From: an uncultured Alphaproteobacteria bacterium
GTDB taxonomy: Bacteria > Pseudomonadota > Alphaproteobacteria > HIMB59 > GCA-002718135
Reading direction: 5' to 3'
DNA: 64,000 nucleotides
Assembly (NCBI GenBank): GCA_902621725.1
Contig: CACNND010000001.1
Location: 83,726 to 147,725, forward strand
The position numbers were made by a program, and so were the translations under genes. Shown one piece after another: positions 2,933 to 63,909 of this stretch; the first letter of the stretch is position 1, and each line of letters begins with the position of its first letter. The notes below the pieces were generated by a model. The model did no database searches. It was not told the DNA's origin and worked only from the letters and a program-made list of their open reading frames with translations.

Positions 2933-3460
2933 ATGCCAATTGATACTACTCTAGATTTTGTTCCCATAAATATTGCTGTAATTACAATTTCTGACTCAAG
3001 AACAAAAGAAAACGATACATCTGGAGATACATTAGAAAAACGCATTACTGATGCTGGTCATAAAATGGTTAAACGTACAATTATACCAGATGATGTTTCT
3101 CAAATAAAAGATACCTTAGATACAATGTCAAAAGAAGAAAATATTGATTGCATTATTACAACTGGTGGAACTGGTCTAACAGGAAGAGATACAACACCAG
3201 AAGCTGTAAGTGCTATAGCTAGTAAACATATTGATGGATTTGGTGAATTGTTTCGCCAAGTTAGTTTTGAAAAAATTGGTACATCGGCTATTCAATCACG
3301 AGCTGTTGCAGCCTTAATAAATAGTACGTATGTTTTTTGTTTACCAGGATCAACAGGTGCGTGCAAAGATGGTTGGGATAAAATTTTACAATATCAATTA
3401 GACATTAGACATAAGCCCTGTAATTTTGTTGAAATCATGCCAAGATTAAATGAAAAATAG
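2933..3460 (+). CDS. moaB: Molybdenum cofactor biosynthesis protein B (MoaB/Mog fold)
   Basis: TTGGTGLTGRDTTPEA motif, about 175 aa, typical MoaB length and layout. Confidence 0.8.
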   Translation: MPIDTTLDFVPINIAVITISDSRTKENDTSGDTLEKRITDAGHKMVKRTIIPDDVSQIKDTLDTMSKEENIDCIITTGGTGLTGRDTTPEAVSAIASKHIDGFGELFRQVSFEKIGTSAIQSRAVAALINSTYVFCLPGSTGACKDGWDKILQYQLDIRHKPCNFVEIMPRLNEK

Positions 3461-4074
3461 TGACTGATTTTTCTATAGAGAAATCAATTGATGGACCTGT
3501 AATTGGTTTAGATGAAGTTGGTAGAGGTCCGTTGGCAGGCCCTGTGGTGAGTTGTGGATGTTATTTTTCTAATTATGATGATTTAGAAACAGAAATACCC
3601 ATAACTGATTCAAAGAAACATACAGCAAAACAAAGAGAAAAATTATTTTTATTTTTTAAAAAATTACAAAAAGAAAAAAAACTTCAATATTACTTAGGGT
3701 ATGCGAGTGTAGAAGAAATAGATACAATTAATATTTTGGAAGCAACAAAATTATCGATGAAAAGAGTAATAGATAAATTTAATTTTGAAAATCCCCATCT
3801 TATAATTGATGGTAATTTTTCACTAAATTATCAAAATGAAAAATCTATAATAGGCGGAGATAAAAAATCTTTATCGATCGCAAGTGCATCTATTATTGCA
3901 AAAGTTCACCGTGATCGACTGATGAAAATGCTAGATACTAAGTTTATATTTTATGATTGGAAAAAAAATGCAGGTTACGGAACTAAAAAACATATTGATG
4001 CAATACACAAACACGGTGTAACTCAATTTCACCGAAAATCATTTGAACCAATTAAATCGTTATTAAAAAAATAA
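3460..4074 (+). CDS. rnhB: Ribonuclease HII
   Basis: GLDEVGRGPLAGPVV active-site motif. GTG start overlaps the moaB stop by 1 nt (TAGTG). Confidence 0.9.
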   Translation: MTDFSIEKSIDGPVIGLDEVGRGPLAGPVVSCGCYFSNYDDLETEIPITDSKKHTAKQREKLFLFFKKLQKEKKLQYYLGYASVEEIDTINILEATKLSMKRVIDKFNFENPHLIIDGNFSLNYQNEKSIIGGDKKSLSIASASIIAKVHRDRLMKMLDTKFIFYDWKKNAGYGTKKHIDAIHKHGVTQFHRKSFEPIKSLLKK

Positions 4075-4197
4075 ATTACTCAAATTGTCCATGCAAAGAA
4101 TGCATACCAAATATTATTTTATTATGCTTCAAAAAGATGCGACAAACATTAAATATATATTATGTTTCATCATTCCTCCCATTTGATGAACAATTTC

Positions 4198-4228
4198 AGG
4201 GGTCTACGGACCCCTTTTTTTATTTTTT
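4198..4228 (+). terminator. Rho-independent terminator (GC hairpin plus T-tract)
   Basis: GGGGTC (4199-4204) pairs with GACCCC (4209-4214) around a 4-nt loop. It is followed by TTTTTTTATTTTTT. This is one of very few GC-rich hairpins in the window. Confidence 0.7.
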
Positions 4229-4260
4229 AATAAAGTTTTTTAAGGTTATCCCTACCTAAA

Positions 4261-4326: not shown

Positions 4327-5397
4327 ATGAAGAAAAATCAAATTATATTAGGTGATTCTATTAAGGAATTGAGAAAATTTAAGGATCATTCAGTTGATCT
4401 AATCTTTGCTGACCCACCCTATAATCTTCAATTAAAAGATACGTTATACAGACCTGATCAAACAACGGTGGAAGCTGTAACACAAGACTGGGATAAATTT
4501 AGTACGTATAAAGAATATGATCAATTTACCAATGCGTGGCTTAGTGAATGTAAACGTGTTTTAAAAAAAGGTGGTGCGCTTTGGGTGATTGGAAGTTATC
4601 ATAACATTTTACGTGTAGGCTCCACAATTCAAGATGAGGGATTATGGATTTTAAATGATATTATTTGGCATAAAACAAATCCTATGCCAAATTTTCGTGG
4701 TACACGTTTTACAAATGCCCATGAAACATTATTATGGTGCACAACATCAAGAGAAGCGAAATACACATTCAACTATCAAAATCTCAAAGAACTAAATGAA
4801 GGAAAACAAATGCGTAGTGACTGGTATATTCCTATTTGTTCAGGGAAAGAAAGATTACGTAAAGATAATAACCAACGTTCACACCCAACACAAAAACCAG
4901 AAGCTCTTCTCTACCGAATTTTATTAGCCTCGACAAACAAAGGTGACCTTGTTCTTGATCCCTTTTCTGGAAGTGGAACAACTGCTGTTGTTGCAAAAAA
5001 ATTACAACGGAACTTTATTGGCATAGAAAAAGATAAAGATTACGTCAAACTTTCAAAAGAACGGTTAAAGAAAACAAAAGTATTAAAAGAAGATGTTGTG
5101 ACTATTGCAAAAAGTAGAAAAGAGTTACCAAAAGTTCCTTTTGGTGAATTAGTCGAGCAAGGAATTATTCCACCAGGTGCCGTATTAACAGATAAAAAGG
5201 AACGTTTTAAAGCAACGGTTAGTATTGATGGAACACTTAAAATAAAAGATTTAACAGGTTCTATTCATCAAATGGGAGCAAAGATACAAGGACTACCAAG
5301 TTGTAATGGATGGGATTTTTGGCATGTAAAGAACAAGTCTAAATCAATCCTACTAGATGAAATACGATCTAATTACCGTAAAGATAAACTAAATTAG
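4327..5397 (+). CDS. ccrM: CcrM-type N6-adenine DNA methyltransferase (GANTC-specific family)
   Basis: DPPY motif (FADPPYNL) comes before the FSGSGTT AdoMet motif (beta-class order). The C-terminal extension of about 80 aa is typical of CcrM. Confidence 0.9.
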
Positions 5398-5402
5398 TAT
5401 TT

Positions 5403-7889
5403 TTAAAAATTGTACGTGAGCATTAATTCTGCTTCTTGATTAGAATTATTACTAATAAACTGATTAGCATTAAACCCTAAATCAAAACCATATATATTTT
5501 TTGATATACCAAGTTTAGCCTCTGTGTTTTCATCACCAGCTAATGACAGACTGTATTGTGTCTCACGATTTGATATAAAGTTAATAGCAAAATCTATAGT
5601 ATCTCTACGTTCACTCCTGTTACCTTGAACCCTACTATAACTAGAGTTAATATTTAAATAATCTCCAGCAATAAATGTTAACCCAATCATAGAGCTGATT
5701 AAATGATCTGAATTAGCTTCTTGCGTATAAGTATAAATTGTTGAAGTGTCTGTTACATAATTGATCTTGGCATCAGATTTGTTACTAAAATCAGTAATAA
5801 ATTTAAGCGATCCAAATGGTTGAAATTTATTTTCATTAAACTGAATATTATCACTAACTTCAAAACCAAATGAGGCTAATCCACTCTCAATTCTCTGACT
5901 TGCATAATACAACGCATTTAATCCAGTCTCCTTGTAGTCATCAAGTTTAGTATAACCTAAATCAAGACGTCCAATTGGTGTTATATTAAAATCACCTTTA
6001 TCAATTGTTTTACCGTAATTAATAGAGCCAAATATTTGTGTTCCATCCCGCGTCCCAGTTAATACATTAGAATTATGGACTCTTTTCAAATCACTTTCTA
6101 TTAACCCTATGCCTAATAATGTTTCGATAAAATTATTATTATCAAGTGGCCTTGCTCGGTAAATAGAGAAATTTATATTTTCACTATCAACACTTGTTCC
6201 ATTTGTTCCAATATCCGTATCACTTTCACCATACTGAATAGCAAAACCAAGAAAATCACTATCACTTAATTTTTTATCAAATCCTAATGCTACTGCTTGA
6301 CCTTCAGTTTCTTGTTTTGATGAATTTATACTATCACCAATTTTTGATACATAAGTTGATCCAGATGTCCATGCAGACCAATTACCTGGCATAATGGAAT
6401 TGGTATTTTTTTCTATATTATCATTTGCTAATGAGGCAAGAATGTTATTATCAATATCTAATTGTAATCCTTGGCTCGACAAAGAATCACTTAATCTATT
6501 TTGTCTTAAAAATCGTAAACGATTTGAGACAGTATCAATAGACTGACTAATATAGTTTTTTGCTAATTCACTTTGCGCATCTATGGAGCCTACAACATCT
6601 TTAATTGTTGTTGGATCCAACCTATCATCGCTAACAGTAAAACTTAAAGTCGTTGTTGACGTTATACCAGCATAAGAAGCATCACTTCCATCATCAAAAG
6701 CTGTAGCATCAATTAATACATAATATTCAACATTATATTCAAAATCTGAGCTGGGATTAATTGTTATCGCTGTTGTTCCAGTACCAGTTACTTGACTACT
6801 GGTGACATCTATTGTTTCAACAAGAGAATTATCAGATGTTTTATAAATTTCTATATTACCACTTTCTACATCCATCTTTTCACTAAAGGTTAGAACTATA
6901 TTAGCATCTATTGAAACACCTGTAGCGTTATCCGCTGGTGAAGAAGAGCTTAGAGTCGGAACTGCTAAATTATAAGCTGCATTATTTAAGGTATATTCAT
7001 TAACTTCATCATTACTACCACCAGTTTTATCGCCATCAGTTCCCGTAATAAATACTTTACTACCATCATCATTAAAAGCTATACCTTCAGGTTGCACTTC
7101 CTCATCTGCTACACTATATTCATCAACGAGAGTTGCACTAGAAATATCAAAACCTGTTGTTAAACTATATTCATAAATCTTTCGTTCGATTCTATTCAAA
7201 ACAAATAATGTAGTTCCATCACTACTGAATGCCAACGATGATGCGCCAGAAGTTACAGTTAAACTATCCACATATGTTACTGTTGATGATAAATCAAATG
7301 CAGTTTCAACAGTGTATTCATCGATTTCATCGCCATCCTCAATAAACAACTTTGTACCAGTAGAATCGAATTCTATTGCCAAAAAATTTCCAGACTCGTC
7401 AGGATCAAAAGTATTAAGGTGAGTTGCCGATGATATTTCATAGGGTACGGTAAGCCTATATGTTATTACACCATGTTGGTTTACCGAAAGATACATTCTA
7501 TCGCCGTCTTCATTAAATCTTATATCATGAATTCTTGTACCTCCTCCATTTGTTGAAAATTTTAAATCTGTTATAACAGTCGTAGTAGCCTCACCATCAT
7601 CTGTATCTCTTATTTGTTTTTCAAAGCTTTTTGTTGATACGTCATATGAAGTAGTTAAATCATATTGAACTACAACATTTTTAAAGCCTGGGTCGGTACC
7701 AACAATATACATTTTATCACCATCATCATCGAATGTTATCCCGTAAGATAAACTAAATTCAGTATGAGTTGCTGCAGCATCCTCATGATTTATATCTGCT
7801 TTAAGAGAATTGATAAAAATACAATTGAAAAATAAGAAAATTAAAAGATAGATTAAATATTTTTTTATTTTGACCAAACTTACAAACAT
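5403..7889 (-). CDS. Autotransporter (type Va) outer-membrane protein with a beta-propeller-repeat and Ig-like passenger
   Basis: Signal peptide, then five or more repeats of F(N/S/D)xDG(D/T/S)(K/R)(M/L)(Y/F)(I/V) (YVTN-like blades). Next comes an SbsA/Big_5-like segment (PADNATGVSIDANIVLTFSEKMD). The C-terminal 280 aa or so have alternating beta-barrel character and end in ...LMLTYNF. Confidence 0.75.
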   Translation of the reverse strand: MFVSLVKIKKYLIYLLIFLFFNCIFINSLKADINHEDAAATHTEFSLSYGITFDDDGDKMYIVGTDPGFKNVVVQYDLTTSYDVSTKSFEKQIRDTDDGEATTTVITDLKFSTNGGGTRIHDIRFNEDGDRMYLSVNQHGVITYRLTVPYEISSATHLNTFDPDESGNFLAIEFDSTGTKLFIEDGDEIDEYTVETAFDLSSTVTYVDSLTVTSGASSLAFSSDGTTLFVLNRIERKIYEYSLTTGFDISSATLVDEYSVADEEVQPEGIAFNDDGSKVFITGTDGDKTGGSNDEVNEYTLNNAAYNLAVPTLSSSSPADNATGVSIDANIVLTFSEKMDVESGNIEIYKTSDNSLVETIDVTSSQVTGTGTTAITINPSSDFEYNVEYYVLIDATAFDDGSDASYAGITSTTTLSFTVSDDRLDPTTIKDVVGSIDAQSELAKNYISQSIDTVSNRLRFLRQNRLSDSLSSQGLQLDIDNNILASLANDNIEKNTNSIMPGNWSAWTSGSTYVSKIGDSINSSKQETEGQAVALGFDKKLSDSDFLGFAIQYGESDTDIGTNGTSVDSENINFSIYRARPLDNNNFIETLLGIGLIESDLKRVHNSNVLTGTRDGTQIFGSINYGKTIDKGDFNITPIGRLDLGYTKLDDYKETGLNALYYASQRIESGLASFGFEVSDNIQFNENKFQPFGSLKFITDFSNKSDAKINYVTDTSTIYTYTQEANSDHLISSMIGLTFIAGDYLNINSSYSRVQGNRSERRDTIDFAINFISNRETQYSLSLAGDENTEAKLGISKNIYGFDLGFNANQFISNNSNQEAELMLTYNF

Positions 7890-58319: not shown

Positions 58320-58871
58320 ATGAATTTAACTGGTCAGTTCTTAATTTCAATGCCTTCATTAGAAGATTATAGATTTGAAAAAACAGTAATATATATGTGC
58401 GCTCACTCAAAGGATGGCGCGATGGGTATAATAATTAACAAGAAAATTGACTACGATCTTTACCCTGATTTGTTAAATCAGCTAGGAATAGATAAGCCAT
58501 TAGAGGGTAAAAAACTTTACATTCGTTATGGCGGACCTGTTGAAAGTGGTAGAGGATTTGTTTTACATTCTGATGAAGTGATTCAAAAAGAAACACTAAC
58601 AATAGATAAAGGTGTTGCGTTAACTAGTACTTCCGAATTTTTTGATGATCTATCCAAAGGTAATGGTCCAAAGAATAGCATCCTAGCTCTTGGATATGCA
58701 GGATGGGGTCCAGGACAAATTGAAAAGGAATTAGCGTCAAATAGTTGGATGACGCTTAAAACAGATAGTGATTTTATTTTTGGCGAAAAAGTAAATAATA
58801 AGTGGAACGATGCATTTAATTTATTAGGAATAGATGCGAGTAAACTTTCATTATTCTCTGGAAATTGTTAA
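58320..58871 (+). CDS. YqgE/AlgH family protein (UPF0301)
   Basis: LTGQFLISMP...F.KTVIYMC.H..DGAMGIIINK pattern. Confidence 0.85.
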   Translation: MNLTGQFLISMPSLEDYRFEKTVIYMCAHSKDGAMGIIINKKIDYDLYPDLLNQLGIDKPLEGKKLYIRYGGPVESGRGFVLHSDEVIQKETLTIDKGVALTSTSEFFDDLSKGNGPKNSILALGYAGWGPGQIEKELASNSWMTLKTDSDFIFGEKVNNKWNDAFNLLGIDASKLSLFSGNC

Positions 58872-59063
58872 TTATAGAATAATCTCAAAAACTCTTTCCT
58901 TATCTTTTTCTAAAACCTTTTTTATTTTAAACTTTGCAGTTTTTGTAAGTTTGATTCCTTTATTTGTCACAAATGATTTCATTTTAATTACTTCTTTTTC
59001 AGGCATTTTTCTTTCATATTTCAATATATGTTTCTCTCCACTGATAATAAATGCAGTTTTCAT
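58872..59063 (-). CDS. Small basic hypothetical protein (63 aa)
   Basis: Lys-rich ORF preceded by a good SD (AAGGAGA, 6 nt before the ATG). No family recognised. It competes with the antisense ORF 58834..59094. Confidence 0.4.
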   Translation of the reverse strand: MKTAFIISGEKHILKYERKMPEKEVIKMKSFVTNKGIKLTKTAKFKIKKVLEKDKERVFEIIL

Positions 59064-59083
59064 AATTTATCTCCTTTATATTC

Positions 59084-59117
59084 AAGAGAGGTAAAATTAC
59101 CTCTCTTAATTTTTTTT
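59084..59117. terminator. Strong 10-bp hairpin just downstream of amt-1; the T-tract is on the plus-strand side
   Basis: AAGAGAGGTA (59084-59093) pairs with TACCTCTCTT (59098-59107) around a 4-nt loop. AATTTTTTTT follows on the plus strand. On the minus strand the A-tract precedes the hairpin. Confidence 0.55.
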
Positions 59118-59124
59118 ATAAGTA

Positions 59125-60411
59125 TTAATCTCTTATTGAATAAGCTACAACTCCTACCTCAGCCTTATCAGTTCCAAGTTTTTCAGCTTCTTCACTAATT
59201 CTTAATCCCATAATATTTTTAATTAAATATATTACAATATATGAGAAAACAAAAACAAAGATACATACTGATGCAACACCTAATAACTGAATTGCGTATG
59301 ATGCATCAGGATTAGTTAGAGGGACAACTAATGTTCCCCAAATTCCAGCAAACATATGTACAGGTATTGCACCAACAACATCGTCTAGTTTTAATGAATT
59401 TAAGAAGTTAGTTCCATAATACATTATAATTCCTCCAACTACTCCAATTCCAATTGCAAGCAATGGACTAGGCATTAATGGCTCAGCTGTTATTGAAACT
59501 AGACCAGCAAGAGCTCCATTTAGCATCATGACAATATCGGTTTTACCACCAATCAATCTTGTTATTGCTGCACCAGCCATACATCCACCACAAGCTGCAA
59601 GTTGAGTGTTCATAAAAATTTTAGACATTGCTGTTGCATCTTCATAAGAACCTAATGCAAGTTGTGAGCCACCATTAAAACCATACCAACCCATCCATAA
59701 AATAAATGTACCTAGAGTAACTAATGGAATTGATGATGGAGCAAATGGAGCCATATTAGCTGGTTCACCACTTGCGCTAAATCTCCCAAGTCTTGGACCT
59801 AAAAGAATTACACCAGCCAAGGCGGCTGAACCACCACAAGCATGAACTAATGTTGAACCTGCAAAATCCGCAAATCCAAGGGCGTCTAACCATCCTCCAC
59901 CCCATTCCCAACCCATTTGAATTGGATAAATCACTCCTCCAAGAACTGCTGCAAAAGTAAAGAAAGGCCAAATTTTTATTCGCTCTGCGACCGCACCCGA
60001 TACAATTGAAACAGTAGCACAAACAAATAAAGCTTGAAAAAACCAGTCGGAAGCATCTGAGTAACCTGTTTCCATTGATGTATTGTCAGTCCATATGGAT
60101 GGTATACCAATATAACCTCCTTCAGGGACAGAATATCCAAGATTATATCCTATTAAATAGAAAACAATTGAAACTATTGCGAACTTTCCAATATTTTTAG
60201 CAGCAATAGTTGATACACTTCTGGTTGTAACAAGACCTGATTCTAAAAATAGAAAACCTGCAGCCATCCACATGACTAAAAATCCACATACTAGAAAAGA
60301 AAATGTATTAAATATATATGCTACTTCTGCGTCAACCTCTGCCCTCACAGATGAACTTAGCAACAAAATAAATGAGAGTATTGTAAAAAGACTAAAAAAT
60401 TTTTTATACAT
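59125..60411 (-). CDS. amt: Ammonium transporter (Amt family), copy 1
   Basis: Signal peptide, MWMAAGF..LESG, SIVSGAVAERIK, DFAGSTLVH, 428 aa. Confidence 0.95.
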   Translation of the reverse strand: MYKKFFSLFTILSFILLLSSSVRAEVDAEVAYIFNTFSFLVCGFLVMWMAAGFLFLESGLVTTRSVSTIAAKNIGKFAIVSIVFYLIGYNLGYSVPEGGYIGIPSIWTDNTSMETGYSDASDWFFQALFVCATVSIVSGAVAERIKIWPFFTFAAVLGGVIYPIQMGWEWGGGWLDALGFADFAGSTLVHACGGSAALAGVILLGPRLGRFSASGEPANMAPFAPSSIPLVTLGTFILWMGWYGFNGGSQLALGSYEDATAMSKIFMNTQLAACGGCMAGAAITRLIGGKTDIVMMLNGALAGLVSITAEPLMPSPLLAIGIGVVGGIIMYYGTNFLNSLKLDDVVGAIPVHMFAGIWGTLVVPLTNPDASYAIQLLGVASVCIFVFVFSYIVIYLIKNIMGLRISEEAEKLGTDKAEVGVVAYSIRD

Positions 60412-60501
60412 TATTAAACTCCATATAAAATTATAAACACATAACTACCCTTTAGTTATGCATTAAATCATGCGTAGCTATGGAAATTAATTACTAAGAT
60501 C

Positions 60502-60552
60502 CGCGTTCCTTCGGGTATACCTACTTCCGATTTGCGAACTGCAAATTGAACG
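60502..60552 (-). promoter_or_regulatory. Glutamine riboswitch aptamer (glnA RNA motif), gene-proximal, amt-1 leader
   Basis: Minus strand: CGUUCAAUUUGCAGUUCGCAAAUCGGAAGUAGGUAUACCCGAAGGAACGCG. It has the CGUUC/GAACG closing helix, an internal hairpin, and the conserved GGAAGUAG and GAAGGAACGC strings. Confidence 0.8.
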
Positions 60553-60568
60553 ATTAATAACTTTGCAT

Positions 60569-60619
60569 GCGTTCCTTCGACTATCGTCTACTTCCGTCAC
60601 TCTAATTGAGTGATGAACG
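60569..60619 (-). promoter_or_regulatory. Glutamine riboswitch aptamer (glnA RNA motif), distal, amt-1 leader
   Basis: Minus strand: CGUUCAUCACUCAAUUAGAGUGACGGAAGUAGACGAUAGUCGAAGGAACGC. Same architecture, 16 nt upstream of the proximal aptamer. Confidence 0.8.
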
Positions 60620-60688
60620 TGAATTGAGTTATAGCTATAATTTGAAAACTATCAAGAAATAGTATTAGATTTAGTTAATAAAATCTGA

Positions 60689-61114
60689 TTAATTTTCTAA
60701 ACTCATCTTACTAAAAAATGAACCTTCTTTTCTTAACCATGTATTAATCATATCGAGAAAATTATTGCTTAAATAATAATTTTTAATTCGTTTGTCTGAC
60801 TTACTTTGCTCTTTAATAAAAATATTTTTTTCTAAAGCTTCGTTTAAAATAGATTGAATAGATGATCTAGATCCAATTGACTTAGGTATATTTGCGCAAA
60901 TTGTTTCAAATGAAATTCCGTTCAATTTATTATTTTCATATATTTCAAGAGAGATAACATGGTGTAAAATTGATTTAAATAAAAATTTAGAGACGTAATC
61001 TTCTGAAAAGAAGCTAGAATATATGTTTCTTTTTTTCTCTTTAATTATTTCTGCTTCAGTCATTAAATATCTCAATAATATTTTGCTATTTTGGGAGAGC
61101 AAATGCTCTCCCAT
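60689..61114 (-). CDS. Small winged-helix (MarR-like) putative transcription regulator
   Basis: ISFETICANIPKSIGSRSSIQSILNEALEKNIFIKEQSKSDKRIKNYYLS reads as an HTH recognition helix plus a beta-wing with the D(K/R)R typical of MarR-type wHTH proteins. An alternative start at 61063 (MTEAEII...) would avoid the hairpin at 61093-61112. Confidence 0.55.
   Translation of the reverse strand: MGEHLLSQNSKILLRYLMTEAEIIKEKKRNIYSSFFSEDYVSKFLFKSILHHVISLEIYENNKLNGISFETICANIPKSIGSRSSIQSILNEALEKNIFIKEQSKSDKRIKNYYLSNNFLDMINTWLRKEGSFFSKMSLEN
61093..61112 (-). other. GC-rich 8-bp hairpin between amt-2 and the wHTH gene
   Basis: GGGAGAGC (61093-61100) pairs with GCTCTCCC (61105-61112) around a 4-nt loop. There is no clear U-tract on the minus strand. 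It overlaps the ATG at 61114-61112. Confidence 0.45.
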
Positions 61115-61162
61115 TCTTTAGTGACCAACTATAAGGAGTTGATGTGCTAATCACTAAATTCA

Positions 61163-62449
61163 TTAGTCTCTGATGCTGTAAGCCATTACACCTACTTCAG
61201 ATTTATCAGTACCAAGTTTTTCAGCTTCTTCACTAATTCTAATACCAAAGAGCATTTTCATGATGTACCAAATAATAAATGATACAACAAAAACGAAAAC
61301 GTTAATTGCCACAATTCCGTAAAGTTGTGCACCAAAACTTGCTGCTGTGTTTGAAATTGGAACTACTAATGTTCCAAAAATTCCAGCAAAACCATGTACT
61401 GGAATTGCTCCAACAACATCATCGATTTTAAGTGATATTAAAAGTCTTGTTCCATAAAAAACGATTAATCCACCTATTGCACCAATAATTACTGCTAGGA
61501 AAGGAGAAGGAGCTAATGGTTCTGCAGTTATTGCTACAAGACCACCTAATGCCCCATTAAGCATCATTACAACATCTGTTTTACCCGTTACTAGTCTTGA
61601 AATAACAGCACAAGCCATTACACCTGCACCAGCTGCCAGGTTAGTATTAATATATATTGTTGCTACTGCTGTTACATCATCAAATGTACCCATAGCTAAT
61701 TGTGATCCGCCATTAAATCCGAACCATCCAAGCCACAGGATAAATACACCTAAAGTTGCAAGAGGAATTGATGAATTTGCAAAAGGCTCCATTGGAGCTG
61801 CTTCACCACTATCAGTAAAACGTCCTAATCTTGGACCTAACAAAATTGCACCAGCAAGTGCTGCTGCCGCTCCTGCACTATGTACCAGGGTTGAGCCAGC
61901 AAAATCTGAGAAACCTGCTTCTGCTAGGTATCCTCCACCCCATTGCCAACCCATTTCGATTGGATAAATGAAACCTGTTAACAAAGCACAAAAAATAAAA
62001 AATGGCCAAATTTTGATTCTTTCAGCTAATGTTCCAGATACGATTGAGCAAGTTGTTGCACAAAATACCATCTGAAAGAACCAGTCAGAACCATCTGAAT
62101 AACCTGTATCAAGAGCACTACCATCACTCCAAGGAAGCGGAGATCCGATAAAGCCACCTGCAGGAATGCCATATGCCATGTTATATCCAACTAACCAGAA
62201 CATTAAACCAGCTATAGAATATAAGCCTATATTTTTTGCAGCTATTGTTGCTACACTTTTAGACGTTACAAGTCCTGATTCAAGCATTGCAAATCCTGCT
62301 GCCATCCACATGACTAAGAACCCAGATACAAGAAATAGGAATGTATTTAAAATGTATTGCACTTCACCATCTACTTCGGCTCTTGCGTATGAACTAAAGA
62401 GCATAAAGACGGCAATAATGCTAATGAAATATATAGATTTTTTTAACAT
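61163..62449 (-). CDS. amt: Ammonium transporter (Amt family), copy 2
   Basis: Colinear with copy 1, and 428 aa if started at 62449. By eye about two-thirds of residues are identical. The ATG at 62449 has a GGAGGA SD 5 nt upstream; the track start at 62479 adds 10 aa. Confidence 0.95.
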   Translation of the reverse strand: MLKKSIYFISIIAVFMLFSSYARAEVDGEVQYILNTFLFLVSGFLVMWMAAGFAMLESGLVTSKSVATIAAKNIGLYSIAGLMFWLVGYNMAYGIPAGGFIGSPLPWSDGSALDTGYSDGSDWFFQMVFCATTCSIVSGTLAERIKIWPFFIFCALLTGFIYPIEMGWQWGGGYLAEAGFSDFAGSTLVHSAGAAAALAGAILLGPRLGRFTDSGEAAPMEPFANSSIPLATLGVFILWLGWFGFNGGSQLAMGTFDDVTAVATIYINTNLAAGAGVMACAVISRLVTGKTDVVMMLNGALGGLVAITAEPLAPSPFLAVIIGAIGGLIVFYGTRLLISLKIDDVVGAIPVHGFAGIFGTLVVPISNTAASFGAQLYGIVAINVFVFVVSFIIWYIMKMLFGIRISEEAEKLGTDKSEVGVMAYSIRD

Positions 62450-62540
62450 TAATCCTCCATTATAAATTTCACAGTACATGGCTCACATTGAGTCATGCGT
62501 TACTTTTCATGCTTAGCTATGGAAATTAATTACTAAGATC

Positions 62541-62591
62541 CGCGTTCCTTCGGTTTAACCTACTTCCGATTTGCCTAAGGCAAATTGAACG
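62541..62591 (-). promoter_or_regulatory. Glutamine riboswitch aptamer (glnA RNA motif), gene-proximal, amt-2 leader
   Basis: Minus strand: CGUUCAAUUUGCCUUAGGCAAAUCGGAAGUAGGUUAAACCGAAGGAACGCG. The hairpin differs from the amt-1 copy but stays paired. Confidence 0.8.
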
Positions 62592-62607
62592 ATTTATAAC
62601 TTTGCAT

Positions 62608-62658
62608 GCGTTCCTTCGACATTCGTCTACTTCCGTCACCCTAAAAGAGTGATGAACG
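62608..62658 (-). promoter_or_regulatory. Glutamine riboswitch aptamer (glnA RNA motif), distal, amt-2 leader
   Basis: Minus strand: CGUUCAUCACUCUUUUAGGGUGACGGAAGUAGACGAAUGUCGAAGGAACGC. Confidence 0.8.
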
Positions 62659-62763
62659 TATTAGATGAAATAGTTTATTATTAAATTTTAGTAAGAATAT
62701 TTAAGAGAATATTGGTATGCAATAATTGCATATATTAAAAAAACTACTAAATCTGCCAAAATA

Positions 62764-63909
62764 TCAATTTATTTCAGATAAATTTATCCACTTAGAATTT
62801 TTATTACTCGAATCCACAGTAGCATTAATAAATTTCATTATGTGCAATCCATCATCTATATTTGGAAGAACTTTTAATAATTCATCTTTATTGTCCTTAT
62901 TCTGAATGACATCTGCAGCGTCTGAGTAAATTTGTGCGAAAGCTTCAATAAATGCCTCTGGATGACCCGGCGGTATTCTTGTGTGCCCCATAGATTGTGA
63001 TGTTTGTATTACACTTCCTCTTGTAATTACTTTATCGAGTTCTCCTATTTGTGAAAATCTTGCATAATTAGGGTTCTCTTGTGCCCAATGCAAAGCTCCC
63101 TTTTCACCGTATATAGAAAGTGTAATATTATTTTCTTCTCCAATAGCTACTTGAGAAACACTCAAATTACCTTTTGATCCATCTTCCATTCTAATTAGAA
63201 TACTTGCATTATCATCAAGCATTCTTCCTTCAACAAATGTTGTTAAATCAGCGGCAACTTCTTTAACTCTTGTATTAGTAACAAATTCCGCAAGATGCAT
63301 GATGTGACTTCCTATATCTCCAACGCATCCTGCAACACCACTTCTTGCTGGATCTGTTCTCCACTGTGCCTGTTTATTAGATTCTTCTTCTTTAGATCCA
63401 AGCCATCCTTGCAAGTAACCTCCTCTAATCACTCTTATTTTGCCAAGTAAACCATCTTTGATAATTCTTCTCATTTCTCTAATTACAGGATAGCCACTAT
63501 AATTATGAGTTAAAAAAAAATGTGCATTTGATTTTTTGACAGCATTGTGTAAATCTGTAGCCTGATCCATTGTTGCAGTAAGTGGTTTATCGCATATTAC
63601 ATTAATATTTTTGGATAAAAATTTTATTGAAGGTTGTGCGTGTAAATGATTTGGAGTAACTATTGAAACAACTTGAATGCCATCTTCTCTCTCAGATTCT
63701 TTAGTAGCCATAGTTTCAAAATCTGGATAATTTCTAGATAAATCTATTCCTAATTCATTTGCTGAATTTATACCGTTTTCAACGTTTGAAGAAAAACATC
63801 CTGCTACAAGTTCATATTTATTATCTAAACTCATAGCATGCCTATGCCATTTACCTACCTGTCCACCAATTCCTCCACCAATCATTCCTATTCTCAGTCT
63901 CTTTTTCAT
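62764..63909 (-). CDS. Gfo/Idh/MocA family NAD(P)-dependent oxidoreductase
   Basis: N-terminal Rossmann LRIGMIGGG and a length of about 380 aa, the family-typical layout. Confidence 0.85.
   Translation of the reverse strand: MKKRLRIGMIGGGIGGQVGKWHRHAMSLDNKYELVAGCFSSNVENGINSANELGIDLSRNYPDFETMATKESEREDGIQVVSIVTPNHLHAQPSIKFLSKNINVICDKPLTATMDQATDLHNAVKKSNAHFFLTHNYSGYPVIREMRRIIKDGLLGKIRVIRGGYLQGWLGSKEEESNKQAQWRTDPARSGVAGCVGDIGSHIMHLAEFVTNTRVKEVAADLTTFVEGRMLDDNASILIRMEDGSKGNLSVSQVAIGEENNITLSIYGEKGALHWAQENPNYARFSQIGELDKVITRGSVIQTSQSMGHTRIPPGHPEAFIEAFAQIYSDAADVIQNKDNKDELLKVLPNIDDGLHIMKFINATVDSSNKNSKWINLSEIN

Follow-up and report, generated by a model that had tools for sequence, protein, structure and literature searches.

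How does a bacterium without the PII/NtrBC network match the synthesis of its ammonium transporters to its nitrogen status? The question remains open for SAR11, the most abundant heterotroph of the surface ocean, since a survey of the Pelagibacterales found the lineage to lack this network (PMC3870248). It is raised in concrete form by a minus-strand locus in the 64-kb stretch of contig CACNND010000001.1 that we analyzed as a whole (hereafter the window), in which two ammonium transporter genes, amt-2 and amt-1, each follow a leader that carries two glutamine aptamers. We propose, with confidence about evenly balanced between yes and no, that each leader would act as a translational switch that turns Amt synthesis off at high glutamine, with both aptamers feeding one expression platform.

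An Rfam scan of the 64-kb window returned four matches to the glnA RNA family (RF01739) and nothing besides. The four matches score 54.7-61.5 bits (E 3e-9 to 4e-11), well above the family gathering score of 35 bits, and each spans the full model (positions 1-53 of 53), bearing out an original prediction, made from the letters of the window alone, that glutamine aptamers precede both amt genes. The conserved core, comprising CGUUCA, CGGAAGUAG, and GAAGGAACG-C (GAACG-C), is intact and invariant across the 63 leaders that we compared, and stems P2 and P3 covary among these leaders, with two-sided changes at 10 pairs. By sequence and fold, the four elements are glutamine aptamers, and they presumably bind this ligand. 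In one genome (L044, ~5860-5910), P1 of the second aptamer of the downstream leader reads GAACA for GAACG, which leaves a C·A mismatch and reflects either a natural loss of function or an error in single-cell sequencing. The two leaders and the genes that follow them are laid out as listed here.

62605-62660, minus strand: aptamer 1 of the amt-2 leader (RF01739, 60.8 bits)
62596-62608, minus strand: linker CAUGC-AA-AGUUAU, the 5' strand of helix P0, predicted with the aptamers enforced and invariant in 63 leaders
62539-62593, minus strand: aptamer 2 of the amt-2 leader (RF01739, 60.0 bits)
62521-62541, minus strand: hairpin P-H, GGAUCUUA-loop-UAAUUUCC, stems invariant and loop variable
62518-62530, minus strand: anti-RBS AUUAAUUUCCAUA, an invariant 12-bp complement of the ribosome-binding site (RBS)
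62508-62520, minus strand: trailer AUAGCU-AA-GCAUG, the 3' strand of P0, predicted to pair with the linker over 11 bp
62477-62497, minus strand: hairpin P-T, CAUGACUCA/UGAGCCAUG, 4 of 8 pairs changed on both sides
62447-62460, minus strand: RBS of amt-2 as read from the sequence, AUGGAGGAUUAAUG, with the Shine-Dalgarno (SD) element GGAGG at 62454-62458 and the ATG at 62447-62449
61163-62449, minus strand: amt-2 (PF00909, TIGR03644; paralogue group amt2)
60566-60621, minus strand: aptamer 1 of the amt-1 leader (RF01739, 61.5 bits)
60557-60569 and 60469-60481, minus strand: 5' and 3' strands of P0 of the amt-1 platform, in register with the upstream copy
60500-60554, minus strand: aptamer 2 of the amt-1 leader (RF01739, 54.7 bits)
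60440-60502, minus strand: amt-1 platform in register with the upstream copy, with P-H at 60482-60502, the anti-RBS at 60479-60491, and P-T at 60440-60460
59125-60411, minus strand: amt-1 (PF00909, TIGR03644; paralogue group amt1), with SD GGAG at 60419-60422

To place the locus, we scanned species-representative genomes with Amt-1, which gave 80 loci, and mapped aptamers (by pattern search) and neighboring proteins on them. All 80 come from Pelagibacterales/Pelagibacteraceae or from single-cell genomes labeled "uncultured Alphaproteobacteria," and the locus belongs to the Pelagibacteraceae (SAR11) lineage. About 30 species representatives share the duplicated layout of the window (type A), in the order gfo, two aptamers, amt2, a MarR-like gene, two aptamers, amt1, a gene for a 63-residue protein (p63), algH, and dsbD. 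Sister lineages carry a single copy, always of the amt1 type, either as gfo, two aptamers, amt1, and p63 (type B, 4 loci) or with the MarR-like gene between amt1 and p63 (type C, 8 loci). The pattern search found no aptamer at 36 further SAR11 amt loci, and an Rfam scan of 11 of these 36 gave no match.

Conservation extends past the sensors into the RNA that follows them. The stretch after the second aptamer, GGAUCUUA-loop-UAAUUUCCAUAGCUA(A/C)GCAUG, does not vary among leaders, whether upstream, downstream, or single-copy, and neither does the linker between the aptamers, CAUGCAAAGUUAU, whose first C immediately follows P1 of aptamer 1. When the leaders are folded with the aptamers enforced, linker and trailer form P0, an 11-bp helix that encloses aptamer 2 and P-H and contains a symmetric AA/AA internal loop with no kink-turn signature. 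P-H begins one base past P1 of aptamer 2 and hides the UUUCC of the anti-RBS; its loop varies among leaders (GUAAU, UUAUU, UAUAU, UAUUA), whereas its stems do not change. The anti-RBS covers P-H's 3' half and the first part of the trailer strand of P0. Within the 17-18 nt linker of each pair, we found no SD, start codon, or terminator, and separate platforms for the individual aptamers were not found; because the linker lacks these signals and is predicted to pair with the trailer, each leader appears to consist of two aptamers on one platform.

The anti-RBS also has a second potential partner. Despite the sequence differences between the two RBS regions, it can pair over 12 bp with the SD and spacer of either amt gene. 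The calculated anti-RBS:RBS duplexes have energies of -9.3 kcal/mol for amt-2 and -10.5 for amt-1; across the RBS regions of 54 long open reading frames (ORFs) of the window, the mean is -5.9 (standard deviation 2.3). The linker, P-H stems, anti-RBS, and trailer are invariant, whereas the loops and the P-T stem vary or covary; the proteins under their putative control, Amt-1 and Amt-2, are just 67% identical in amino acid sequence. With the aptamers formed, the leaders are energetically bistable: a state with P0 and P-H paired and the SD free and a state with the anti-RBS paired to the RBS lie only 3.3-3.8 kcal/mol apart, a gap as small as expected of a switch, and the former is the minimum-energy fold.

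Published work on this aptamer class suggests how glutamine might act on such a platform. Upon glutamine binding, G23 inserts at the base of P1 and pairs with C60 (PMC11477058), and a passage of PMC6212724 that cites Ren 2015 describes how ligand binding melts a short helix joined to P1. Guided by the Rfam consensus and a review, we infer that the C directly 3' of P1 (after GAACG) is the linchpin position. This conserved C is the first base of P0 at aptamer 1 and the base just before P-H at aptamer 2. In the mechanism we favor, P0 and P-H would jointly bury the anti-RBS, for which the alternative partner would be the 12-bp helix over the amt SD and spacer. Glutamine binding would draw the C just after each P1 into the linchpin pairing and thereby melt the helix that abuts that P1 (P0 at aptamer 1, P-H at aptamer 2). 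The freed anti-RBS would then block the RBS, lowering Amt synthesis at high glutamine, and the presence of two aptamers on one platform would sharpen the response. In constrained folding, blocking the 4-5 nt after each P1 decreased SD accessibility from 0.64 to 0.14, an effect seen in 71 of 71 leaders.

Physiology also favors a switch that is off at high glutamine, as likely relatives of these transporters are induced by nitrogen limitation. In strain HTCC1062, AmtB (SAR11_0818) was detected under nitrogen limitation only (PMC3870248). The Pelagibacter genomes of our set carry a related amt gene that shares 72-74% identity with amt-1 and is preceded by the palindrome that also stands before amt-2 in the window (ATGCA-N5-TGCAT, described below). 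Taken together, the published melting next to P1, the modeled block of the SD, and the physiology under nitrogen limitation favor the off direction.

Several observations weigh against this interpretation. With only the aptamers enforced, folding makes the SD more accessible (0.64 instead of 0.46), as seen in 57 of 71 leaders, and all characterized glutamine riboswitches are on switches (PMC6316151, PMC6212724). The assignment of the linchpin C derives from a consensus and a review, and the promoter calls discussed below are consensus-level only, the downstream -10 element lacking its final T. P0 and P-H are invariant (10 of the 11 P0 pairs never vary among the 63 leaders) and so gain no support from covariation, which accordingly speaks neither for nor against them. 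Finally, a pattern scan of metagenomes for divergent tandem examples yielded nine loci, seven of them with tandem aptamers joined by short linkers, and none with a P0-like helix or the linker-trailer platform architecture.

The first two of these points would also support the same anatomy operating with the opposite sign. In that case, glutamine would stabilize both P1 stems and, by stacking, P0 and P-H, so that the anti-RBS stays buried and amt is translated at high glutamine; the role of these Amt proteins would then lie in nitrogen-replete cells, an example being the release of ammonia during growth on nitrogen-rich organics. This view is in keeping with the modeled energies, which are lowest for the state with P0 and P-H when the aptamers are formed, and with SAR11_1310, a second Amt of HTCC1062 that was found in nitrogen-replete cultures only and was proposed to be an exporter activated through its leader RNA (PMC3870248). 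SAR11_1310 is described as a phylogenetic outlier (PMC3870248), however, and is thus not close to the amt genes of the window, which encode proteins ~70% identical to those of the palindrome-bearing Pelagibacter amt genes. If the latter correspond to the AmtB induced by nitrogen limitation, a leader that is on at high glutamine would oppose the logic of its own promoter. In addition, the structural mechanism as given in PMC11477058 and in the cited passage of PMC6212724 melts the helix next to P1 rather than stabilizing it. We therefore consider this sign unlikely, though still worth weighing, and the off direction the better supported of the two.

Control might instead be exerted on transcription, with P-T serving as a weak intrinsic terminator or a modulator of Rho entry whose formation is set by the aptamers. 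P-T is the sole platform helix with clear covariation (the 4 of 8 pairs that change on both sides across leaders), and a U-rich stretch, UGUUUAUAAUUUUAU, follows it in the downstream leader. The upstream leader has no clear U-tract after P-T, however, and the single-copy leaders lack one. We found no conserved anti-terminator that competes with P-T, the hairpin is present in both modeled states, and a terminator scan listed it on the plus strand only, not on the strand of amt. These features make transcriptional control very improbable.

Among the metagenome loci, three tandems (L082, 3450-3850, minus strand; L086, 4330-4700, plus strand; L085, 770-1176, plus strand) have linkers of 3-10 nt and small ORFs downstream, which in L082 and L086 encode a basic protein of ~54 residues (MTNQNAQIKRAVKLALRRE...). 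Unlike the SAR11 amt leaders, these three place a simple SD-containing hairpin directly after P1.

The original prediction had described the whole locus as a duplicated module of two aptamers, amt, a GC hairpin, and a small gene. All of these elements are present on the minus strand at or near the positions it gave, with further features identified here added below.

62764-63909, minus strand: gfo-type oxidoreductase gene, upstream neighbor of the amt-2 leader
62716-62732, minus strand: palindrome TATGCAATTATTGCATA with the core ATGCA-N5-TGCAT, within the upstream leader's promoter region
61117-61158, minus strand: 13-bp hairpin after the amt-2 stop codon, loop with ACUCCUUAU
61092-61113, minus strand: GC hairpin GGGAGAGC/GCUCUCCC (fold z -5.1)
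60689-61063, minus strand: MarR/SarA-like winged-helix gene, 124 aa, supported by homologue lengths, model, and fold matches (141-aa ORF, 60689-61114)
60628-60655, minus strand: promoter-like TTGATA-16-TATAAC before the second aptamer pair
59082-59109, strand unassigned: hairpin AAGAGAGGUA/UACCUCUCUU, which separates amt-1 from the 63-aa gene and has a T8 run after it on the plus strand
58872-59063, minus strand: gene for a conserved 63-aa basic protein, SD AGGAG, converging on algH
58320-58871, plus strand: algH, convergent with the 63-aa gene

The description as a duplicated module holds in part. Two aptamer pairs do stand each before an amt gene, but the leader and the 3' end of amt are the sole direct repeats: the 153-nt leader (60468-60620 versus 62507-62659) at 91% identity and the 3' coding end of amt at 74%. 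The two small genes are unrelated by comparison, and the hairpins are not homologous, differing in both sequence and context. Nor is the amt pair itself young. Both products match PF00909 (E 1e-97 for amt-2 and 4e-96 for amt-1) and the marine subtype TIGR03644, at 574 and 532 bits, respectively, against a curated cutoff of 514; the amt-2 ORF could be extended to 62479, and the GGAGG SD precedes the ATG at 62449. Clustering of the Amt copies of the 80 loci separates two SAR11-wide paralogue groups, with 63-70% identity between and 70-85% within groups, which makes the gene pair old. A recent tandem duplication of the module is ruled out by these two ancient groups, with high similarity confined to the leader. 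In several genomes (L016, L025, L026, and also L018 and L009), the upstream and downstream leaders share P2/P3 loop variants that differ between genomes. Because such variants are common to both leaders of one genome, the pattern indicates gene conversion between leader copies within genomes.

How are the two genes transcribed? The palindrome stands in every upstream and single-copy leader and differs among them in its spacer; type C loci have a third half-site, and the downstream leader has no palindrome. In the window, it has only this one exact match. A total of 932 kb of SAR11 amt loci contains 57 sites with the core ATGCA-N5-TGCAT, compared with ~2 expected from a composition estimate. 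The 23 inspected sites before riboswitch-less amt genes lie 66-91 nt ahead of the first long ORF, and in the Pelagibacter loci L058-L070, L074, and L079, the palindrome stands 66-91 nt upstream of the amt start codon. Because the palindrome is found with or without the riboswitch and with or without the MarR-like gene, it looks like a SAR11-wide amt operator and is a candidate site for a SAR11 nitrogen regulator. The induction of AmtB (SAR11_0818) by nitrogen limitation would make it a good candidate for the nitrogen-responsive site, provided that the palindrome-bearing Pelagibacter amt gene is the orthologue of AmtB. The MarR-like protein was considered as its binder and is an unlikely one, since the palindrome occurs at amt promoters of loci without that protein; the occurrence of members of its family in phage-like and sugar-kinase contexts also weighs against this role.

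A second, near-exact copy of the palindrome, CATGCAAAGAATGCATACCAAATATT, lies at 4090-4106 on the plus strand with the same ACCAA(A)TATT flank, in an intergenic region (4090-4235, plus strand) between genes for RNase HII (3460-4074) and a CcrM-like DNA methylase (4327-5397). Some 60 nt past it, at about 4163-4222, is a small-RNA-like element with a hairpin that has an 11-nt CU-rich, anti-SD-like loop, UUCCUCCCAUU, ending in a terminator composed of GGGGUCUACGGACCCC and U7 (fold z -4.5; no Rfam match). An exact-protein look-up of the gene adjoining this element returned no match. The element could be a nitrogen-regulated small RNA in the amt-2 regulon.

Before the second aptamer pair stands a promoter-like element of its own. 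Across 31 downstream leaders, its TTGATA is invariant and its TATAA nearly so, in the form TTGATA-16-TATAA(G/C), ending 6-7 nt before the aptamer; the last base of the -10 hexamer is not T, so a strict consensus scan did not list the element. We propose that amt-2 would be transcribed from a weak promoter overlapped or preceded by ATGCA-N5-TGCAT, and amt-1 from this promoter-like element, perhaps with some read-through. The original prediction, by contrast, held that the second aptamer pair might lie within a single long transcript and could then serve as an internal checkpoint uncoupling amt-1 from amt-2; in this model, one 3.7-kb transcript would run from the upstream promoter across the locus. 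Intergenic gaps in the locus are indeed short, the minus strand between amt-2 and amt-1 has no U-tract hairpin or canonical terminator, and a translational platform can operate within a polycistronic mRNA. Yet TTGATA-16-TATAA(G/C) lies at the same distance from its aptamer as do the promoter-like hexamers of the upstream leader, two strong hairpins follow amt-2, and the corresponding unit of sister lineages, which follows the gfo terminator hairpin, clearly has this leader as its 5' end. We thus think it improbable that one transcript with an internal checkpoint describes the locus. If control is translational, as we favor, the second pair would work alike in a separate or a read-through transcript.

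The hairpins of the locus were also considered as amt terminators. Both the region after amt-2 (61092-61158) and the hairpin at 59082-59109 are conserved, with fold z scores of -5.1 and -4.6, respectively. The hairpins after amt-2 are conserved in type A loci and flanked by A-runs, with no U-tract on the minus strand; a role of the GC hairpins as amt terminators is ruled out, the flanking sequence on that strand being A-rich rather than a U-tract. The hairpin at 59082-59109 shows one compensatory change (in L026). The A8 that precedes it on the minus strand is the T8 that follows it on the plus strand, and it reads as an intrinsic terminator for plus-strand transcription of algH, not of amt-1; amt-1 and the 63-aa gene are probably cotranscribed. 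The hairpin and T8 (59082-59115, plus strand) lie ~210 nt beyond the algH stop codon, and if they terminate transcription, the 3' untranslated region of algH would be antisense to the whole 63-aa gene. The 13-bp hairpin at 61117-61158, overlooked in the original prediction, is conserved and has a 16-nt loop whose anti-SD-like ACUCCUUAU is complementary to GGGAGG, the SD of the downstream MarR-like gene. In L030 and L038 the same hairpin follows amt1, and L027 and L028 have a looser version of it.

The gene between the two amt copies had been labeled as encoding a winged helix-turn-helix protein, and the label stands: profile, AlphaFold2 model, and Foldseek search all point to a MarR-type fold. 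An alignment of 55 diverse relatives shows a MarR-type recognition helix and a wing with D-K-R, and the family profile searched against the Protein Data Bank (PDB) matches SarS (E 1e-5), HpaR, and MarR chains. The model has a pLDDT score of 94, and its top 50 Foldseek matches in the PDB belong to the MarR family with a probability of 1.00. The window protein has no Pfam match, falling below the gathering scores of MarR and MarR_2, and weak Pfam matches appear among the 55 relatives (SarA/Rot in 11 and MarR_2 in 2). It resembles the MarR/SarA family in fold and in the D-K-R wing while differing in falling short of the Pfam thresholds and in the small size of its family, which comprises 128 clusters at 50% identity and is seemingly confined to SAR11-like and phage-like contigs. 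Since members also occur in phage-like and ROK-kinase contexts, the family is not tied to amt.

Among the 120 relatives of this protein listed, 72 are 124 residues long and 44 are 141 residues long, and most type A genomes have a start at the position of M18 of the window protein, behind a GGGAGG SD, which makes the GC hairpin intergenic in those genomes. The real start is probably M18, at 61063, with the 141-aa ORF over-extended. By comparison with L001-L024, in the lineage of the window (together with L005, L013, L018, and L052), this SD is replaced by AT-rich sequence and an in-frame ATG lies inside the GC hairpin (61064-61114), and the regulator may be translated differently or poorly there.

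The proposed 63-aa basic ORF proved to be a real gene, strongly conserved at 71-98% identity without indels in all locus types, whereas DsbD in the same comparisons falls to ~50% identity. The protein has 1103 relatives and no Pfam (E ≤ 0.1) or NCBIfam family; its AlphaFold2 model is β-rich (pLDDT 70) and gave no fold match. A role as a glutamine synthetase (GS)-inactivating factor of the cyanobacterial kind (IF7, IF17, or DUF4278) was considered and set aside, as neither Pfam at E ≤ 0.1 nor the fold search returned a match. The MarR-like and 63-aa genes are apparently conserved passengers of the locus. At its other border, gfo was compared across L001-L039 and is 66-69% identical in most genomes in which amt, algH, and dsbD reach 90-99%, rising to 97-99% in L009, L044, and L052; the DNA adjoining the locus on the gfo side may be variable or prone to recombination.

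What, then, of PII? The absence of glnK was confirmed for the 64-kb window, in which tblastn with Escherichia coli GlnB and GlnK gave no match with E under 2, and the same queries found no PII gene within about 6 kb of amt in 41 riboswitch-bearing relatives, so that neither the window nor these 41 loci have a PII gene adjoining amt as in a glnK-amtB pair. The queries do detect PII genes next to amt at 3 of the 36 riboswitch-less loci (L041, 3913-4230; L046, 4111-4428; L047, 4109-4426). These genes, from Pelagibacteraceae, encode GlnK-like proteins 55-57% identical to E. coli GlnK and are divergent from an amt-amt pair. PII and the glutamine riboswitch never co-occur at one amt locus among those mapped, which fits a complementary distribution. 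The suggestion that RNA sensing takes the place of GlnK does not hold mechanistically, as GlnK blocks finished AmtB post-translationally within seconds (PMC3870248), whereas a riboswitch sets synthesis.

Much of this picture was already published, including the switch class, its tandem pairing, its link to amt, and the lack of PII in SAR11. A 2010 paper described the glnA RNA motif and noted both that it occurs in tandem and that it is linked to ammonium transporters in marine metagenomes (PMC2864571), and 157 doublets and 4 triplets of glutamine riboswitches have been cataloged (PMC9481103). PII-independent nitrogen control in Pelagibacter, which the original prediction had mentioned, was described in a 2013 study that also speculated about riboswitches on amt genes (PMC3870248). 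Klähn et al. considered the sign and taxonomic affiliation of the environmental glnA/amt-linked examples unknown (PMC6212724). In the literature we searched, we found no assignment of amt-linked doublets to the SAR11 lineage, no one-platform architecture with a linker-trailer helix and an anti-RBS, and no mention of the ATGCA-N5-TGCAT palindrome. What is new is confined to the conserved RNA elements that follow the sensors and to some neighboring control elements, with the platform variant possibly new. That these leaders define a new glutamine-riboswitch architecture, in which two aptamers and a linker-trailer helix free an anti-RBS by melting next to P1, and constitute the first glutamine-off switch, we offer as a tentative proposal that is more doubtful than the off direction alone.

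These results do not overturn current views but fill in a known picture. They assign one large set of amt-linked glnA-type aptamers to Pelagibacteraceae, place the riboswitch on top of a promoter palindrome common to SAR11 amt genes, and provide a concrete, mutable platform (P0, P-H, and the anti-RBS) with which regulatory sign can be probed using short RNAs. If the proposal is correct, PII-less SAR11 would have direct RNA-level feedback from glutamine on Amt synthesis, layered on a SAR11-wide palindromic amt operator, from which a small RNA bearing an anti-SD loop may be driven as well.

Compared with known systems, the locus resembles the glnK-amtB operon in coupling ammonium uptake to the glutamine status of the cell, but there PII plugs the finished transporter, whereas here no PII gene is present and RNA would set synthesis only. 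With the Glutamine-I riboswitch, as in the Synechocystis gifB leader, the window leaders share the aptamer consensus, the fold, and a position 5' of nitrogen-metabolism genes. Characterized Glutamine-I examples control small GS-inactivating factors and are on with glutamine (PMC6316151, PMC6212724), whereas the targets here are Amt genes, the anti-RBS is held by two helices that abut both P1 stems, and the sign may be inverted. A review describes Glutamine-I as "restricted but common to cyanobacteria," with amt links only in uncultured samples (PMC6316151); the host here is a presumably PII-less alphaproteobacterium. Tandem "pseudo-cooperative" glutamine riboswitches likewise have two complete aptamers head to tail, and Table 1 of PMC9481103, as we read it, groups them with multiple-platform arrangements, in contrast to the one platform of the window leaders. 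The other tandems retrieved here combine 3-10 nt linkers with a simple SD hairpin, whereas the 17-18 nt linker of the window is predicted to pair with the trailer. In the tandem glycine riboswitch, a leader-linker helix ties the two domains together. That system likewise unites dual aptamers and a single platform, and a helix involving the linker is predicted for the window leaders too, but it belongs to another aptamer class with another ligand, and its linker pairs with the 5' leader, whereas the linker in the window would pair with the 3' trailer, with no kink-turn signature.

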